From assembly GCA_964414215.1 (NCBI GenBank), contig CAYPVQ010000001.1, positions 1-46,990 of the forward strand: DNA of 46,990 nucleotides, in the 5' to 3' direction. A program made the translations under genes and the position numbers. This DNA comes from an uncultured Candidatus Saccharibacteria bacterium (GTDB lineage: Bacteria > Patescibacteriota > Doudnabacteria > UBA920 > 2-01-FULL-46-14). Positions 19,453-26,275 of the stretch are shown piece by piece (position 1 is the first letter of the stretch; the number at the start of each line of letters is the position of its first letter). Under the pieces are notes generated by a model. It had not been told where the DNA came from and searched no databases. It saw only the letters and a list, made by a program, of their open reading frames with translations.

Positions 19453-20484
19453 CCACAATCCCTGCCAATTCAAAATCTCCTGCCGCAATTTGAAACTGTT
19501 GCCGTGGCTTAGCAAACCCAAATAGGACTGCAGGGTTTCATTGATGGGATGGTCACAGATTTTTCTAAATGCTCGCCGCTTTGTTGCCGCTCGTAAAACT
19601 CTATGATGCGGAAAATGCACCCATCCCAAAAAATCCACGCCTGAAGCCAACGGCTTGAGAATAATTTTGTCTGGATGCAGTGATAGACATAACCGCCGTT
19701 CCAAAAACCCTGAAATCTTACTAATCTGATCGGCTAGCCATTCGCGGTTTTCTGACAGCAAAACAAAATCGTCTGCGTAGCGGATATAGTATTTCGCTTT
19801 CAGCCCGTGCTTCACAAACTGATCAAGCTCATTGAGGTAAACGTTGCAGAATAACTGCGAGGTCAGATTCCCAAGCGGCAGACCTCGACCTATGTCATTC
19901 CCGACCTGATCGGGAATCCACAACATAGATTCCCGCTTTCGCGGGAATGACAGCACAATTTGCTCCAAAAGCCAAAGGATATTTTTATCCGGAATATAAG
20001 CTACCAAAATTTTCAGCAGGTTTGCATGATCAATGCTCGCGAAAAACCTTTTGATGTCTAGCTTCAGAACCCAAACAGTTTTGGTATTATTACTGCCAGC
20101 TTTTCGGCCAAATTCCCGCAAACGATTTAGTGCCTTATGGACTCCCCTGTTTAAGCGGCAAGAAAACGAATCAGCGATAAAAGTTCTGTCAAAAAACGGA
20201 TATAGCTGCCTGTAAATCGCGTGATGCAAAATCCTATCCCTCACCGCGGCCTTATGGATATTGCGCGGTTTCGGGTCAGAAATGTTAAAAGCATGGTAAC
20301 CGCCGTGCTCATAGGTAAAATTGGCAAGCTCGCTATGAAGCTGGACAAGGTGATCAGCGAGCCTTAAACTAAACTCCTGGACGTCTCGCTTGGCTCGTTT
20401 GCCAGGGATGAACTCCCGCCAGGCAGCCAGCAGGTTTTCCAGGGAAATAATCTCATCATAGGTTTTGTTAAATTGTTTCTTCAT
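19438..20484 (-). CDS. DGR-type reverse transcriptase
   Basis: 348 aa with RT motifs (LKLDIKRFFASIDH, GLPLGNLTSQLFCNVYL, YIRYADDFVLL, LGWVHF). The (I/L)GxxxSQ motif is typical of DGR RTs. An adjacent TR/VR pair and an Avd-like gene are present. Confidence 0.85.
   Translation of the reverse strand: MKKQFNKTYDEIISLENLLAAWREFIPGKRAKRDVQEFSLRLADHLVQLHSELANFTYEHGGYHAFNISDPKPRNIHKAAVRDRILHHAIYRQLYPFFDRTFIADSFSCRLNRGVHKALNRLREFGRKAGSNNTKTVWVLKLDIKRFFASIDHANLLKILVAYIPDKNILWLLEQIVLSFPRKRESMLWIPDQVGNDIGRGLPLGNLTSQLFCNVYLNELDQFVKHGLKAKYYIRYADDFVLLSENREWLADQISKISGFLERRLCLSLHPDKIILKPLASGVDFLGWVHFPHHRVLRAATKRRAFRKICDHPINETLQSYLGLLSHGNSFKLRQEILNWQGLWLGEE
19892..19952. repeat. 61-bp palindromic element (TIR tgtcattcccg / cgggaatgaca) inside the RT ORF
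   Basis: Encodes the extra segment (F)PRKRESMLWIPDQVGNDI just before GLPLGNLTSQ. The ORF continues through it. Related copies are at 20493-20580 and 40778-40836. Confidence 0.75.
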
Positions 20485-20492
20485 AGACGCAC

Positions 20493-20580
20493 TGTCATTC
20501 CCGATCTAATCGGGAATCCAGGTTCTGGATCCCCGTCGCAGTTTACTCTCGTGGAGACGGGGGGGGGGGCGGGAATGACA
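20493..20580. repeat. 88-bp element of the same family between RT and avd, containing a G11 tract
   Basis: Sequence tgtcattcccgatctaatcgggaatcc...cgggaatgaca. The G run spans 20559-20569. Confidence 0.75.
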
Positions 20581-20984: not shown

Positions 20985-21009
20985 ACCCTCTCTATGAAAA
21001 GAGAGGGTT
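20984..21009. terminator. 9-bp-stem hairpin between the avd stop and the TR
   Basis: aaccctctc-tatgaaaa-gagagggtt. It begins at the last base of the avd stop codon and ends 15 nt from the TR. Confidence 0.45.
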
Positions 21010-21024
21010 GTTCCCAACTTACTT

Positions 21025-21152
21025 GCGGACAGCGGGAAAACGATAGTTGTCGTTCCAGTCACCGGCCAGCTGATTCAGGTTGAGCTCGCGCTTCCTGTTC
21101 CAGTTGTTGAGCACCGGCGCACACTGGTTGTCGTTGTCATCGAGACAGACCG
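21025..21152 (-). repeat. DGR template repeat (TR)
   Basis: 128 bp, 115/128 identical to 21527-21654. It carries A (- strand) at every mismatch position. In the VR frame it reads VCLDDNDNQCAPVLNNWNRKRELNLNQLAGDWNDNYRFPAVR, with nine AAY Asn codons. Confidence 0.9.
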
Positions 21153-21425
21153 CCGTGAAATGTGCGATGCACCATCTATTACACTGCCTAAAGAATACTC
21201 TTTATGGCTGTATTTTATTTGCGGGGATTAAACCCGTCCAATGCACCGCACCGAGTTTCGTTGGAAACCTCTCTGCCAAGGAATACTCTGCCGCAAGCCG
21301 TAACCGGCGGCACTCTGATACTTGGCAGTGCGAGATAAACAATCCGAAAGTTTACCTGCCTTTGGCAGGCGTGCCCGCGGATTTTTCAAATTTATCTGGA
21401 TTTATTATAACAAACTTTCTAGAAC

Positions 21426-21474
21426 AAAAAAAGAACTCTTGGACCCCTGCAAAAAAACTGCAAGAGTCCAAGAG
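21426..21474 (-). terminator. intrinsic terminator downstream of the DGR target gene
   Basis: On the - strand, ctcttggac...gtccaagag (9-bp stem, 21474-21436) is followed by ttcttttttt. Confidence 0.6.
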
Positions 21475-21502
21475 CATAAGCACCATCGGAAGAGCCAAGG
21501 AT

Positions 21503-22165
21503 CTAAGTGTCCAAGAACTCTTCCTCGCGGACAGCGGGAAAACGATAGTAGCCGTGCCAGTCACCGGCCAGCTGAAGCAGGTCGAGCTCGCGCTCCCGGC
21601 TCCAGTTGTTGAGCACCGGCGCACACTGGCGGGCGATGTCATCGAGACAGACCGATGCCTCATCCAATAGCACGAGCGGGTTCTGCCGCTGACGTTCCGG
21701 GAACTTATAACCAATACCTGTTCCGTCGTCCAAATCACAGGGCCGGTCGCCAGTCTCCTTCATCCGCCGCTTCATCTCCTCGGTGGAGGCGTAGCCGCCC
21801 GGATTGTAGAGAACTATACGGCGGCGCATCCTGCGCTTCAGCTTGGATTTGTCCACCGTGATGTTCGGGTGGACGCCTCCTTTGAAATCGCAGAGCCGCA
21901 GACGTTCCGGGAACGAAACGGCCGGGTCAAGCTCGATCCAGCCCAGCTCCTCAACCTCTTCCTTGGGTTTGGGTGCAGGATGTTCCGCTTCCGGCTTCGG
22001 TGGCCGAGCGGCGATGGAAAGCGCCGCGATCTGCGGAGCTAAACTCTCCAGTCTAGCCACGTCGTCATCGTCACCATCGGCAGCGAGTATGGCATCAATA
22101 ACCGCATTAACAATAACGGTCATCTTCCCCCACCCGCGTCGAAAATCACTCTTTTTTTGAGCCAT
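21503..22165 (-). CDS. DGR target (variable) protein
   Basis: The start was trimmed to the ATG at 22165, preceded by GAGGAGG. 220 aa with an acidic/Pro-rich linker (DGDDDDV...PPKPEAEHPAPKPKEEVEE). The C-terminal ~42 aa are VR-encoded. A sample line was hand-counted at 57% GC, against 43% for a line in the LCP gene. Confidence 0.8.
   Translation of the reverse strand: MAQKKSDFRRGWGKMTVIVNAVIDAILAADGDDDDVARLESLAPQIAALSIAARPPKPEAEHPAPKPKEEVEELGWIELDPAVSFPERLRLCDFKGGVHPNITVDKSKLKRRMRRRIVLYNPGGYASTEEMKRRMKETGDRPCDLDDGTGIGYKFPERQRQNPLVLLDEASVCLDDIARQCAPVLNNWSRERELDLLQLAGDWHGYYRFPAVREEEFLDT
21527..21654 (-). repeat. DGR variable repeat (VR) at the 3' end of the target gene
   Basis: Encodes VCLDDIARQCAPVLNNWSRERELDLLQLAGDWHGYYRFPAVR. 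It has 13 substitutions relative to the TR, all at TR adenines, and ends 21 nt before the stop codon. Confidence 0.9.
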
Positions 22166-22365
22166 GGTTCCTCCTCGGTCTGCTTCCTGCTTTTCCAAAG
22201 CCTAAAGCCTACCGATGTTCTTTGGTTGTAATCCGTGAATTACGTCACGTGCGGACAGGTCTCAACAATTGAGACGAGCAGTTTAACTATCAAACTTTGA
22301 TAATCAAATTGCCCTACTCAATTAACAAACTATGCTAGCATTTTTTGCCGTCTCTGTCAATGCCG

Positions 22366-23446
22366 TGTACTAGATGACTACATCGGTAACAAGGGTCTGC
22401 TGGAAGTGGTATGCAAAGGGGGTTAAATAATTAAGGGATTGGTGAGGCCGGTAGCAGTTGTATTTGAGTAGCCATTTGGCGAGCTTGCGGTTGAACTCCT
22501 GGACATCTGCCGTCCAGTTCCCTTGCCGCAGAAACTCCTGCTTCAGAATGCCGCTTCAATCGTTCACAGACAGGGTTGTCTTTAGCGGTCTTGACCCGGG
22601 AGAAGTACTGGGGAATATCCAGGCTCTGCAAGGTCTTGGCAAACTCCTTTTCAAACTCACTCCCGTTATCCTGGCAGGTATTGAGGATGTTTCCTTTAGC
22701 TACCGCATAGAGTCGGATGAACAGGTCTTTGGCCGTGGCCGAGGAATGGGTTGTGTACATTCTTGCCCAGGCAATCTTGCTGACCGTATCTATGCCGGTG
22801 ACAATGTATCGGCGCAGTCCATTGCGGTGCAGAACAATGCTGTCAAAAGCCACCAGGAAGCCAGGGGTTTGCTGTTTCGTGAGTTCAATGGTTTTCCGCT
22901 TGGATACCGCCTGTTTTTTGAATTGCCGGTCAGTCTTTCCTGGTCTCCTCTGTAGATGGTACTTCTCAATCACCCGCTGGATTTTCCAGGAGGAGATGCG
23001 TTCGGGGTTCTCCCGTTCGTAGATGGCTTTGAGTTTCATCTTGCCATACTCGGGATTGAGATGTCGGAGGGCGAGGATACGATTCTCCTCAAGACGGGTG
23101 ATTTGAATATCCCGCCTGGTGACGGGGGCGCGGGATCCCTCCTCCAGAGATTTAAGGTTAACCAGGTCAAAAACAGCCTGCCATTTGTAGAAGGTTTTGG
23201 GAGTGATACCAAAATACCTGGCAGTTCTGCGGGCGTTCTTTTGGCCCCGGGTACGGTAATAGATAAACCACTCCAACTTCTGCTTGGCCTTAGAAGAAAG
23301 CTTCAACAGGGCAGCCTGTCTGCGCCAACGATCATATTGGTTTAACAAAGGACGGTCTTTCCAGAGAGGTTTGAGATAGAAATTCATGGCAACTCCTTTC
23401 TTTGCTATTCTAGCAAAGGTGTTACCGATGTATCTCATCTTTTACA
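22366..23446 (-). mobile_element. IS481-like insertion sequence (1081 bp)
   Basis: Imperfect terminal inverted repeats: tgtactagatgactacatcggtaaca (22366-22391) against the reverse complement of 23420-23446 (tgtaaaagatgagatacatcggtaaca). About 22 positions match, including a 12-bp perfect core. It is flanked by a direct repeat tgccg (22361-22365 and 23447-23451). Confidence 0.75.
22370..23387 (-). pseudogene. DDE (rve/integrase-type) transposase with a +1 frameshift near 22550
   Basis: The ATG at 23387 is preceded by GGAG. HTH region, FDSIV...QDNGSEF...NPVCER DDE core. After CERLKR the conserved continuation ILKQEFLRQGNWTADVQEFNRKLAKWLLKYNCYRPHQSLNYLTP is in the next frame and ends at 22370. 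Confidence 0.75.
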
Positions 23447-23533
23447 TGCCGCGCGCCTGCCTGCGGCAGGCAGGGAATCCGCCGAAGCTTGACAGCAATT
23501 TCCCGCTTTGCCTTAATTTTTGCAAACGTGGTT

Positions 23534-24022
23534 TCAGCTTATCGTAATCCCGAATAGCGAGCGAAACCCCAAACCAATCACAAAAGATATAGTCGCAACC
23601 CCTAAGCTAAAGACAAACATCTCGCCAAACTGCTTCGCGAAATTCCGGCCAAAAAGTCGTGCGGTGGAATAAGAAATAACGGCAATAATCACCAGCGCAA
23701 TTATCAAAGTTAGGACCAAAGCACTAAAAACGTCCCCGAAAATGAAAAATGGCGCCACCAACAAAAGCACCACCGCCAGATAAGAAATACCGGTATAGGT
23801 GCCGGCTAATTTAGCGTCTTTGCCATCCTCGTGCCGGGCTTGCATGTAGGCTGAAGCTGCCATCGACAGCGCGGCCGCCACTCCAGTCACCAGCCCTGTT
23901 AGGGCCACAAGCTTCAGCTGCTGCAAGGCAAATGACAGACCGACCAATACCCCGGTCAATTCGATGAGCGCATCATTGGTCCCCAAGACAATACTAGAGA
24001 TGTACTCGCGGTGCTGTTTCAT
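23534..24022 (-). CDS. VIT1/CCC1-family (iron/manganese) transporter
   Basis: 162 aa. VLGTNDALIELTGVLVGLS is the family motif (G-NDG/A-L...L-G), followed by several TM helices. Confidence 0.7.
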   Translation of the reverse strand: MKQHREYISSIVLGTNDALIELTGVLVGLSFALQQLKLVALTGLVTGVAAALSMAASAYMQARHEDGKDAKLAGTYTGISYLAVVLLLVAPFFIFGDVFSALVLTLIIALVIIAVISYSTARLFGRNFAKQFGEMFVFSLGVATISFVIGLGFRSLFGITIS

Positions 24023-24100: not shown

Positions 24101-26275
24101 TTATAGAGACTTGCGGCGCAAGAACAGAGCATTTACGGCAACAATCACAGTGCTCAAAGACATAAACACCGCGGCTAGGGCCGGCTCGAGGAGAATTCCT
24201 TTTGATGCCAAAACCCCGGCCGCCAGAGGAAGCGCTATCACATTGTAGCCAGTTGCCCAAAAAAGATTCTGGATCATCTTGGTATAGGTAAGGCGCGACA
24301 GTTTAATAATTCTCACGATGTCGCGCGGATCGTTTTTGACCAAAATTATTCCGGCGGATTCAATGGCCACATTGGTGCCCGCGCCAATCGCCACTCCCAA
24401 ATCAGCTTGGGTCAAAGCCGGAGCATCGTTTACCCCATCGCCAATCACGGCAACTTTTAACCCGCGGCTCTGCAAGAGCTTGACCTTTTGAGCTTTTTCC
24501 GAGGGCAAAACTTTGGCAAAGTGCTCGTCTATCCCAAGTGTGGCGGCAACCCAAGCAGCAACGTCTTCGGAATCCCCGGTAATCATCGCGGTTTTTAATC
24601 CCATTGCTTTCAAAGCCCCGATAGCGCTTTTTGATTCCTCACGAATGACATCTGCTAAGGCAATAGCGCCAATTAATTTTCGTTCGGCAATCACATAGGT
24701 CACAGTCTTACCCTGACTTGCCAATTGGCCAATTTGTTTTCGCAAATTCTCGACCACATTTTCGGGAAATTTCGCATTCGCTTCCTGCAGCAAAAGTTCG
24801 TTGCCGACCACAATCTTTTTCCCCTCAATTTCGCCTCGAGCCCCTTTGCCCGCAATCCGTTGAAAATTTTTGACTTCCATAAGTTTTAACCCGCGCTGTC
24901 TTGCCTCCCCCGTCATGGCCTTGGCGATTGGGTGTTCCGAATGACTATTAACCGAGGCGGCAAGCCGCAACACTTCGGCTTCGGAAGCCTTCGCAACCGG
25001 GATTATGGTATCCACGCCAAATTCACCGCGGGTTAAAGTTCCGGTTTTGTCAAATAGCACTATGTCAATTCGCCTCGCTGCCTCCAAAGCCAGCCTTTGT
25101 TTTATTAAAAGTCCGTTTCGGGCGGCCATAGTTGTGGAAATCGAAGCCACGAGCGGAACCGCCAATCCCAAAGCGTGCGGGCAGGTAATAACCAGCACGG
25201 CGACCAGTCTCTCGGTTGCAAAAACCATTCCGGCTTTGGCCACGAGCCAGAGGACAAAAGTCAAGGTGCCGGTTGCGAGGGCGAGCTGAGTAGGATAGAA
25301 GGCAGTGCGGTCAGTGAGAAGTTGTGGGCGCGATTTCGAAGGTTTAGCTTCCGCAACAAGTCTCATCACGCCAGCCTATAACGTATTTTCGCCAAGTTGA
25401 TTGACCCGGATCTGAAGGCTTCCGTCGCCATTGATGGTTCCCGCAATGACCTCACTGCCAATAGCTTTGGAAACTGGCCGTGATTCGCCGGTTGCAATGG
25501 CTTCATTGACTTCTGATTTTCCTTCGATCACCTCGCCGTCAGCGGCAATTTTCCCTCCCGGCCTTGCCAAGATAACATCGCCAAGCTTGAGCTCCGAAAG
25601 CGGCACGGTTTCGGTTTTTGAGCTCCGGATTACTTCGGCTGTATCAGGAAGAAGTTTGGAAAGTTCTTTTAAGGCACTTTGCGCGCCGCGCACTGCCCGC
25701 ATCTCAAGCCAGTGCCCGAGGAGCATGATGGTAATAAGTGTCGTAAGCTCCCAAAAGAGCGTATGTTCCGGCTCGCCAAATGTTGCCTGCCCGCCGAAGC
25801 CTTGTCGAAGGAGGGCGTAAATGCTGTAAAAGTACGCCGCCGAGATAGCAATGGCAATTAGCGTCATCATGCCGGGAAGCTTGGCTTTAAGCTCCCTTAA
25901 GGCGCCTACTAGAAATACCCAGCCGCCGTAAAAAAACACAATTGAGCCCAGAGCAAGCGGCAAATATTCCGAACCTGCAAATTGCGGAGCCTTGAAGCCC
26001 AAAAGCTTTTGCGCAATGTCAGAATAAAGCACGACCGGAATAGTCAAGATCAAACTCACCCAAAATTTACGCAAGAACATAGCCAAACTATGCCCTTCGT
26101 GCTTATCGTGATGTTTGTTTTGCGCTTTGCGTTTTGCGTTTTTCGCTTCTAGCAAATTCATCCCGCACTCCGAACACATCCCGGGCTTATCCCGCATAAC
26201 CTCCGGATGCATGGGGCAGGTATAATAAATTACATTGGTATTATGCTGGTGGTGCATATGTGTTCTCCCTTTCAA
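24101..26275 (-). pseudogene. P1B-type heavy-metal P-type ATPase (CPH-motif, CopB-like) interrupted by one in-frame TAG
   Basis: N-terminal part (25376-26275): His-rich start, YYTCPMHPEV...CSECGMNL metal-binding domain and the TGES actuator motif. C-terminal part (24101-25369): CPH, DKTGTLT and GDGVNDAP. The junction reads GENTL-TAG-AGVMRLVAEA in a single frame (TAG at 25376-25378). Confidence 0.85.

Follow-up and report, generated by a model that had tools for sequence, protein, structure and literature searches.

We analyzed a 46,990-nt stretch of DNA, here called the window (contig CAYPVQ010000001.1 of assembly GCA_964414215.1, positions 1 to 46,990, forward strand), which holds a complete diversity-generating retroelement (DGR) on the chromosome of an uncultured, ultra-small bacterium of the candidate phyla radiation (CPR; Patescibacteria). 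Read on the - strand, its parts are a target gene ending in the variable repeat (VR), the template repeat (TR), the accessory gene avd (reversed), and a reverse transcriptase (RT) gene. A GGAGG ribosome-binding site lies 5 nt ahead of the target ATG, and the open reading frame (ORF) encodes an N-terminal helical module (residues 1 to 55), a Pro/Glu-rich linker (residues 56 to 68), and a variable domain (residues 69 to 220). The 128-nt segment at 21527-21654 is, we consider it likely, the VR of an active CPR DGR that diversifies a target with a predicted divergent C-type-lectin-like domain (CTLD). As such the element is an ordinary example of the known DGR mechanism; its target comes from a large family that no database describes.

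Repeat pair, codon design, and natural alleles

The two repeats are 135 nt long, lie 502 nt apart, and are 89% identical, both in the sense of the - strand. Their translations are VCLDDNDNQCAPVLNNWNRKRELNLNQLAGDWNDNYRFPAVR for the TR and VCLDDIARQCAPVLNNWSRERELDLLQLAGDWHGYYRFPAVR for the VR, the latter being residues 172 to 213 of the 220-aa ORF; both are identical to the strings given in an earlier sequence-only reading of this DNA, which also listed every codon change correctly. Seven of nine TR Asn codons (8 AAC, 1 AAT) are altered, to I, R, S, D, L, H, and Y; two GAC codons become GCC (D178A) and GGC (D205G), AAG becomes GAG (K191E), and an AGG-to-CGG change is silent. Within 21527-21654 all 13 VR differences fall at TR adenines, of which there are 30 in 128 nt (hypergeometric p = 5.7e-10); 5 are replaced by C, 5 by G, and 3 by T. 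The earlier reading was right about the pattern in this span but ended the repeat at 21527, whereas it extends to 21520. Over the full 135 nt, 14 of 15 differences are at TR adenines (p = 4.6e-9), and the two outer differences, 21526 A>G and 21523 T>G, mark where TR/VR homology ends.

All 30 TR adenines occupy the first two positions of 20 codons (11, 19, and 0 adenines at positions 1, 2, and 3; 9 codons are AAY), so that adenine replacement could reach about 4e17 protein variants, with AAG as the only codon able to become a stop. The 22 scaffold codons are without exception free of adenine, which agrees with the claim of the earlier reading that the scaffold residues are conserved and carry no variable adenines. 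The TR has no ORF of its own, and in the target frame it meets a TAA just past the end of the homology. This codon-level pattern is the classical DGR design (PMC5758913), as had been proposed from the letters, and the adenine-only mismatches, RT, Avd, position of the VR at the 3' end of the ORF, pair of natural alleles, and conserved Asn design all bear the proposal out.

The second natural allele comes from Logan contig L005 (SRR12113383, 2,470 nt), which matches window positions 21238-23688 over 2,451 nt in all but 4 bases. The four differences (21609, 21607, 21556, and 21552) all lie in the VR and all lie opposite TR adenines, an outcome expected by chance with a probability of about 4e-8. 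We take this to be the signature of recent mutagenic homing in natural populations; on the evidence of these two sequences, the element would be active, or very recently so. In the L005 allele the NN pair at residues 186/187 reads SH, and HG reads DD. The statement that the NN pair ahead of the Trp is unchanged thus holds for the window allele, in which TR and VR agree there, but not for this one.

The same codon design recurs in homologous cassettes. Eight loci carry their own TR 3' of the target gene (L002, L004, L006, L007, L008, L014, L015, and L018), with the fraction of TR/VR mismatches at adenines ranging from 10/11 to 24/24. The order target-TR-avd(reversed)-RT was also found in L002, L006, and L008 (by tblastn) and in L014 (from called genes); in L015 the reversed avd is followed by the contig end. 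In the four translated type i cassettes (L004, L006, L007, and L008) the TR peptide is nearly that of the window, AVCLDDNDNQCAPVLNNWNRKRELNLNQLAGDWNDNYRFPAVRK, with Asn codons at the same positions, and it is followed by a stop in L004, L006, and L007, not in L008. Among 16 homologues, mean entropy was 2.17 bits at the 20 adenine-bearing positions and 0.09 at the 22 adenine-free ones, a complete separation (U = 440, p = 4e-9); hence the 9 adenine-bearing codons left unchanged in the window allele, the NN pair included, are diversified elsewhere.

Several loci have fewer parts. L004 (3539-4645) and L018 (4001-5110) keep a structured RNA element, described below, and a TR whose mismatches are adenine-only, with no adjacent avd or RT; L001, L009, L016, and L017 hold the target alone, with no TR or RT nearby and a VR that looks diversified; and L007 has only an RT fragment. 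For the six without avd and RT, an RT may act in trans from elsewhere in the genome, or the cassettes may be decaying.

Such incomplete loci, together with an insertion in the window RT, are what one might cite for the view that the two repeats stem from a duplication in decay or from a defunct DGR and have no present function. We regard that view as effectively refuted and its residual probability as very small: mismatches are confined to adenines (p = 6e-10); RT, avd, TR, RNA element, and hairpins are all intact; and two natural alleles differ only at TR-adenine sites in otherwise identical DNA.

Table 1. Coordinates of the DGR and associated features (window positions unless a locus is named)
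Feature	Position	Strand	Remarks
DGR target gene	21503-22165	-	220 aa plus stop; ORF and translation
N-terminal three-helix module, residues 1-55	22001-22165	-	In target gene
C-terminal variable domain, residues 69-220	21506-21961	-	In target gene; predicted divergent C-type-lectin-like fold
VR	21520-21654	-	135-nt direct repeat with TR; codons 21527-21652 = residues 172-213
Adenine-free 3' stretch, candidate boundary like the initiation of mutagenic homing (IMH) site	21527-21545	-	19 nt, GC-rich, identical in VR and TR
18-bp hairpin with T-run	21435-21475	-	Just 3' of target stop and VR
Extended -10 box TGTTATAAT	21404-21412	-	Conserved in homologous cassettes
161-nt conserved structured element	21158-21320	-	Adjoins 5' end of TR
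TR	21018-21152	-	Intergenic repeat copy
8-bp hairpin with U-rich tail	20986-21005	-	13 nt past TR
avd accessory gene, 123 aa	20613-20984	+	PF22296, NF033474
DGR reverse transcriptase gene, 348 aa	19438-20484	-	RVT_1
Promoter-like site (TTGACA, 17 nt, TAGCAT, with TG)	22332-22360	-	Upstream of target; consensus match only
Copies of the structured element	L002 6841-7000; L004 4345-4505; L006 4443-4604; L007 5956-6117
Copies of the structured element	L008 2463-2623; L014 6841-7000; L015 4830-4992; L018 4811-4971

Reverse transcriptase, Avd, and the DGR RNA

The RT matches Pfam RVT_1 (E = 4e-20). In an alignment that also took in three CPR RTs, it aligned end to end with Bordetella Brt at 32% identity, with conservation of the motifs LGNLTSQLFCNVY and YADD and of an LGNLTSQLF.N.Y segment. 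Full-length matches to phage RT genes, Bordetella phage records included, are below 60% identity, at 36-39% among the records listed. NCBIfam matches to the RT are all under their cut-offs, the libraries searched holding no dedicated hidden Markov model (HMM) for DGR RTs. Avd, encoded on the strand opposite to target, TR, and RT, was recognized by PF22296 bAvd (55.8 bits against a cut-off of 40; E = 7e-15) and by NF033474 DivGenRetAVD (E = 7e-19), for which its 68 bits are under the curated cut-off of 80.

A palindrome, ATTCCCG-N-CGGGAAT, occurs in three copies in the window, two within the RT gene (19897-19917 and 19929-19948) and one just upstream of its start (20497-20517), where 0.01 copies are expected by chance; all are part of a 43-nt repeat. 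One possibility is a short, mobile palindromic element that this RT can tolerate in a loop.

The structured element that adjoins the TR has six helices. In its alignment 93.8% of cells are paired, as opposed to 38-48% when the partners are slid, and 19 pairs are changed on both sides, as opposed to 1-6 in the slid controls; none of 500 shuffles reached the observed value. The element adjoins the TR in 9 loci, including cassettes whose TRs are unrelated, and a covariance model recovered it in two loci outside the set from which the model was built. It is probably part of the DGR RNA. The only Rfam match is a partial one: its first hairpin, with the flanking CAGAGU...AGAGU, resembles the 5' hairpin of the family RT-7 (RF03028; 25 bits, E = 3e-4). 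The match covers this hairpin only, falls far below the RT-7 gathering threshold of 116.8 bits, and leaves 145 model positions unmatched; the element is not a member of RT-7 as Rfam defines it. Motifs RT-1 to RT-19 were found beside RT genes, and Weinberg et al. 2017 (PMC5737381) suspected some of them of being parts of DGRs.

The extended -10 box TGTTATAAT upstream of the element is kept in 5 of 6 aligned homologous cassettes (L007 lacks it) and is likely the promoter of the TR-containing RNA. A σ70-like site at 21240-21212 was rejected as TR promoter in favor of this conserved box, since it lies inside the structured element. At the other end, the hairpin and U-run beyond the TR lie in the gap that separates it from the stop codon of the converging avd gene. 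Equivalents with compensatory changes occur in L002, L004, L006, L007, and L008 (for example, arms CCCTCTCT/AGAGAGGG in the window and CCCCGCTTA/TAAGTGGGG in L002). Because avd converges on it from the other side, this hairpin probably terminates transcription in both directions and forms the 3' end of the DGR RNA; if so, hardly any spacer would remain 3' of the TR in that RNA.

Next to the point where TR and VR diverge lies the 19-nt stretch TCGTTTTCCCGCTGTCCGC, the same in both copies, for which we propose an IMH-like role, taking the Bordetella IMH as the model (Wu et al., PMC5758913). Located 45 nt beyond this boundary, the 18-bp hairpin is a candidate terminator and may also correspond to the DGR inverted repeat that lies 3' of an IMH.

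Put together, an RNA of about 400 nt on the - strand would start after the -10 box (21412-21404), run through the structured element (21320-21158) and the TR (21152-21018), and end at the hairpin (21005-20986). The RT, with Avd, would copy the TR into cDNA, misincorporating opposite template adenines, and the cDNA would replace the VR from its 3' boundary, for which the adenine-free 19 nt would serve as homology anchor; both steps are modeled on the Bordetella system (PMC5758913). The 20 adenine-bearing codons would thereby be diversified and the 22 adenine-free scaffold codons left untouched.

Target family, predicted fold, and cellular location

The target has no match in Pfam or NCBIfam at E <= 1 and none in PHROGs or PADLOC, and phmmer found no sequence relative among all PDB sequences. 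A set of 5.8 billion proteins yielded 35 homologues, none with a Pfam domain, and a profile search of 1.84 billion representatives yielded 1,906 clusters (50% identity) at E <= 1e-3. The earlier reading had allowed that the ORF might not be translated; the 35 close homologues, the approximately 1,900 clusters, and the conserved residues outside the VR count against that. Family members occur in CPR bacteria, the close homologues in metagenome-assembled genomes of Ca. Doudnabacteria and Saccharibacteria, and are mostly about 200 aa long. Some have two or three tandem domains; in P0045, P0104, and P0158 each of these variable-type domains ends in RF.AVR(K), and P0104 carries its two after a transmembrane (TM) helix. 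No credible Pfam match was found among 115 family members scanned, and a Pfam search for informative fusions in ten longer multi-domain relatives returned only sub-threshold noise. Type i and type ii variable domains align weakly by hhalign (E = 0.011, probability 3.7%, from shallow alignments), and the joint profile is thus our sole ground for calling them homologous. Neither tblastn against 50,697 phage records nor a scan of IMG/VR found target homologues in viral DNA, which speaks against a role in phage tail fibers.

AlphaFold modeled the full-length target with a pLDDT of 87.6 and residues 69-220 (127 sequences) with a pLDDT of 97.1 and a pTM of 0.91. We compared both models with the PDB, and the full-length model with BFVD, by Foldseek. 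All 50 of the 50 PDB matches listed are CTLDs (MCL, BDCA-2, NKR-P1B, DCIR, and Bdellovibrio Bd2740), and most named BFVD matches are poxvirus and herpesvirus C-type lectin proteins. Residues 69-220 probably adopt a divergent CTLD-like fold, which the models do not demonstrably place in the Mtd or TvpA sub-type. The remark of the sequence-only reading that no C-type lectin (CLec) consensus is obvious accordingly stands at the level of sequence, where Pfam, profiles, and hhalign give no link, but not at the level of fold, where there are weak CTLD-type matches.

The same DGR might instead diversify a separate alpha/beta fold with CTLD-like topology only, a new scaffold beside CLec and Ig. Even the best matches have TM-scores of 0.40-0.55, root-mean-square deviations of 4-10 A, and 5-13% identity; compared with a minimal CTLD, the model has an extra strand between the first two helices and two extra helices at 145-161; no HMM or profile links the domain to any CLec family; and similar CPR VR classes, UVR1-6, were left unassigned, their fold being undecidable (Wu et al., PMC5758913). 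We nevertheless think a new fold improbable: two PDB searches list CTLDs only, BFVD returns mostly CTLDs, and the VR covers the C-terminal strands, which is also its place in known CLec variable proteins. The C-terminal segment YRFPAVR (aromatic-R-x-hydrophobic-hydrophobic-R) appears to resemble the VR ends of CLec proteins.

On the model, the VR spans two full strands (180-188 and 191-198), the loop leading into the first of them, loop 199-207, and the last strand, 208-217, for the first half of its length. The 20 variable positions are 175-180, 186, 187, 189-191, 193, 195, 197, 198, 202, and 204-207. Along strand 191-198, variable residues 191, 193, 195, and 197 strictly alternate with invariant R192, L194, and L196, the pattern to be expected of a sheet with one exposed face. 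The remaining variable sites are at the hairpin turn (186, 187, 189, and 190) and in the two loops (175-180 and 202-207). The invariant pair C173/C181 of the target subfamily flanks the first variable loop. In the predicted structure, the variable residues of the beta3-beta4 hairpin and of the loops before beta3 and beta5 may therefore form a single ligand-binding face.

The N-terminal module has predicted helices at 7-10, 12-28, 33-37, and 43-52. It begins with a basic stretch, MAQKKSDFRRGWGK, continues as an amphipathic/hydrophobic helix, MTVIVNAVIDAILAA, and then enters an acidic GG/DGDDDD turn, which across the alignment has the motif GG(D/S)D(D/E)D. A database search with the module alone returned two fragments and nothing else. 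It is identical to that of P0025 at 54 of 59 positions, while the variable domains are only about 20% identical. At the DNA level, the 5' untranslated region and N-module (21983-22279) are about 80% identical to L014 5888-6183 and L002 5870-6183. This similarity ends at the linker, beyond which variable domain, VR, and TR are unrelated, and it returns immediately 5' of the TR, in L002 alone, and again in the RT gene. The pattern points to exchange of a unit of domain, VR, and TR behind a constant N-module. Intragenic recombination of DGR targets has been proposed (Roux et al. 2021, PMC8144416), and the exchange seen here would be a concrete case of it.

In some relatives, the equivalent of helix 1 is hydrophobic enough for a membrane (maximum 19-residue Kyte-Doolittle mean, 2.48 in P0070 and 1.6-2.5 in about a dozen others), or the module is replaced: by a lipoprotein signal in P0071 (LVAAGC), by Sec-like signals in P0093, P0153, and P0155, and by a TM anchor in P0044 and P0104. 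These signals suggest that the variable domain works outside the cytoplasm. CPR bacteria are episymbionts, and the hypothesis usually made for them is that of a variable adhesin or receptor directed at the surfaces of host cells or phages; we adopt it for the target with moderate confidence. Our best guess is that it acts at the surface of these episymbiotic cells or at a cell-cell interface, with the N-module holding it in place.

The protein could instead be a cytoplasmic binding protein, such as a diversified sensor or decoy for phage or host molecules, whose N-module docks to a conserved partner. The window protein lacks a signal peptide, lipobox, and TM segment, its N terminus is modeled as a small helical bundle, and the constancy of the module (54 of 59 positions) across cassettes whose variable domains are unrelated in DNA suggests such a partner. 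Roux et al. 2021 (PMC8144416) allow that CPR targets may truly not be bound to membranes, a point that in their words "remains to be established", and the statement of the earlier reading that the location is open agrees with that literature; DGR-diversified sensors inside the cell are known from multicellular bacteria (PMC10907252). An intracellular site is possible, if on the unlikely side, given that the six relatives with signals or anchors put the same domain outside the cytoplasm, that helix 1 of P0070 could enter a membrane, that the C173/C181 pair could be a disulfide, and that the target carries no fused effector or NTPase domain and has none conserved beside it.

Several observations count against the reading with which we began. 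The window target itself shows no signal peptide, lipobox, signal-peptidase site, or TM segment (its highest 19-residue Kyte-Doolittle mean is 1.35, the threshold being 1.6), just as the earlier reading had said of signal peptide and TM segment. The Foldseek matches have E values of 0.01-0.1 and TM-scores of 0.40-0.55 (with probabilities up to 0.98), and no solved DGR variable protein is among the top 50. Searches by sequence and profile linked the target neither to Mtd, FGE-sulfatase, or DUF1566 nor to any PDB chain: comparison of the family with Bordetella Mtd by hhalign was negative (probability 0.2%), and the family profile retrieved no solved DGR variable protein from the PDB. (The PDB matches that profile and phmmer searches did give, a designed repeat protein and the ankyrin region of OspC3 [E = 1e-3, 59 residues], were taken as chance.) The proposal of one binding face rests on secondary structure and alternation in the model, not on distances. 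The RT carries an in-frame 14-aa insertion, RKRESMLWIPDQVG, ahead of the LGNLTSQ motif, encoded by palindromic repeats; it is missing from the RTs of L002 and L006, and a different insertion occupies the same loop in L008. Finally, the window and L005 alleles have 9 of 13 substitutions in common, and their 4 differing sites are non-contiguous, a mosaic that one 3'-to-5' replacement of the VR leaves unexplained; the cause may be that the assembly is a consensus over a mixed population, or that repair or conversion was patchy.

Around the DGR lie genes for the housekeeping proteins DprA, Pth (peptidyl-tRNA hydrolase), TopA (topoisomerase I), and LytR; neither a second VR nor a target paralogue was found within the window. 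An IS481-family transposase gene (22431-23438, - strand) lies immediately upstream of the target and occupies the same place in the independent contig L005 (321-1277). Farther upstream, a heavy-metal P-type ATPase is divided between two ORFs (24101-25369 and 25376-26275, - strand) that cover Pfam profile positions 1-92 and 98-181, with the break within the E1-E2 domain; a frameshift, a pseudogene, or an assembly error could account for this.

Relation to known DGRs and significance

The Bordetella phage BPP-1 DGR (mtd-avd-TR-brt) shares with this element adenine-specific TR-to-VR transfer, an AAY-rich TR with adenines at codon positions 1 and 2, a VR at the 3' end of the target gene, and, as far as the sequence goes, a candidate 3' boundary that is GC-rich, lacks adenine, and has a hairpin after it. 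Both have Avd, and the RTs, 32% identical, share the LTSQLF.N.Y and Y.DD motifs. The BPP-1 element is phage-borne, whereas this one is cellular, and the window target is unrelated to Mtd in sequence. The RNA structure described for BPP-1 (Rfam RT-10, spacer) lies 3' of the TR, whereas the conserved structure here lies 5' of it, which may mean a different architecture of the DGR RNA.

Like the CLec DGR proteins (Mtd, TvpA, TaqVP, and archaeal AvpA), the target has a predicted CTLD-like alpha/beta scaffold with variable C-terminal strands and loops, and its invariant scaffold residues come from adenine-free codons. It differs from them, and from FGE-sulfatase (PF03781) and DUF1566 (PF07603), in that no sequence, HMM, or profile similarity to any of these was found; its best structural neighbors are CTLDs of animal natural killer (NK) receptors and myeloid proteins, together with Bdellovibrio Bd2740, at TM-scores of 0.40-0.55.

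Besides Wu et al. 2018 and Roux et al. 2021, Paul et al. 2017 (Nat Microbiol) reportedly also surveyed the CPR DGR group, of which this element is a member. DGRs are enriched in CPR bacteria, and their targets there were described as lacking recognizable domains, with fold and location unresolved (PMC5758913, PMC8144416). The window element agrees with the CPR DGRs (Wu et al. 2018, PMC5758913; clade 2 of Roux et al. 2021, PMC8144416) in its CPR host and chromosomal setting, and in its small target with a C-terminal VR and no recognizable domain, TM segment, or signal peptide (PMC5758913, PMC8144416). Architecture B3, of the CPR set, has avd, TR, and RT only, in a particular order and orientation (Wu et al. 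2018, PMC5758913); the order in the window is target-VR-TR-avd(reversed)-RT. The window element differs in that a confident model here points to a CLec-like fold, and in the swap between N-module and variable domain and the structured RNA 5' of the TR, neither of which is mentioned in the texts of those two papers (PMC5758913, PMC8144416).

These findings leave the known DGR mechanism unchanged. What they add is the probable assignment of a CTLD-like fold, from a very confident model, to one large unannotated target family, together with an exact map of the 20 positions programmed to vary and evidence of current activity. The relatives with lipoprotein or Sec signals give a lead, open to testing, toward a role of the domain outside the cytoplasm. 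To specialists, the module swap and the covarying 161-nt RNA may matter more than the codon pattern, as both concern the evolution of DGR targets and the make-up of DGR RNAs other than that of Bordetella. We tentatively suggest, while thinking it fairly unlikely, that the family is a distinct CPR DGR scaffold lineage, in which an N-module that docks or anchors without a classical signal peptide is joined to a swappable unit of variable domain, VR, and TR, and in which a structured RNA 5' of the TR replaces or supplements the Bordetella-type 3' priming spacer. If this is true, the 5' placement of the RNA domain would imply a different geometry for the complex of RT, Avd, and RNA.

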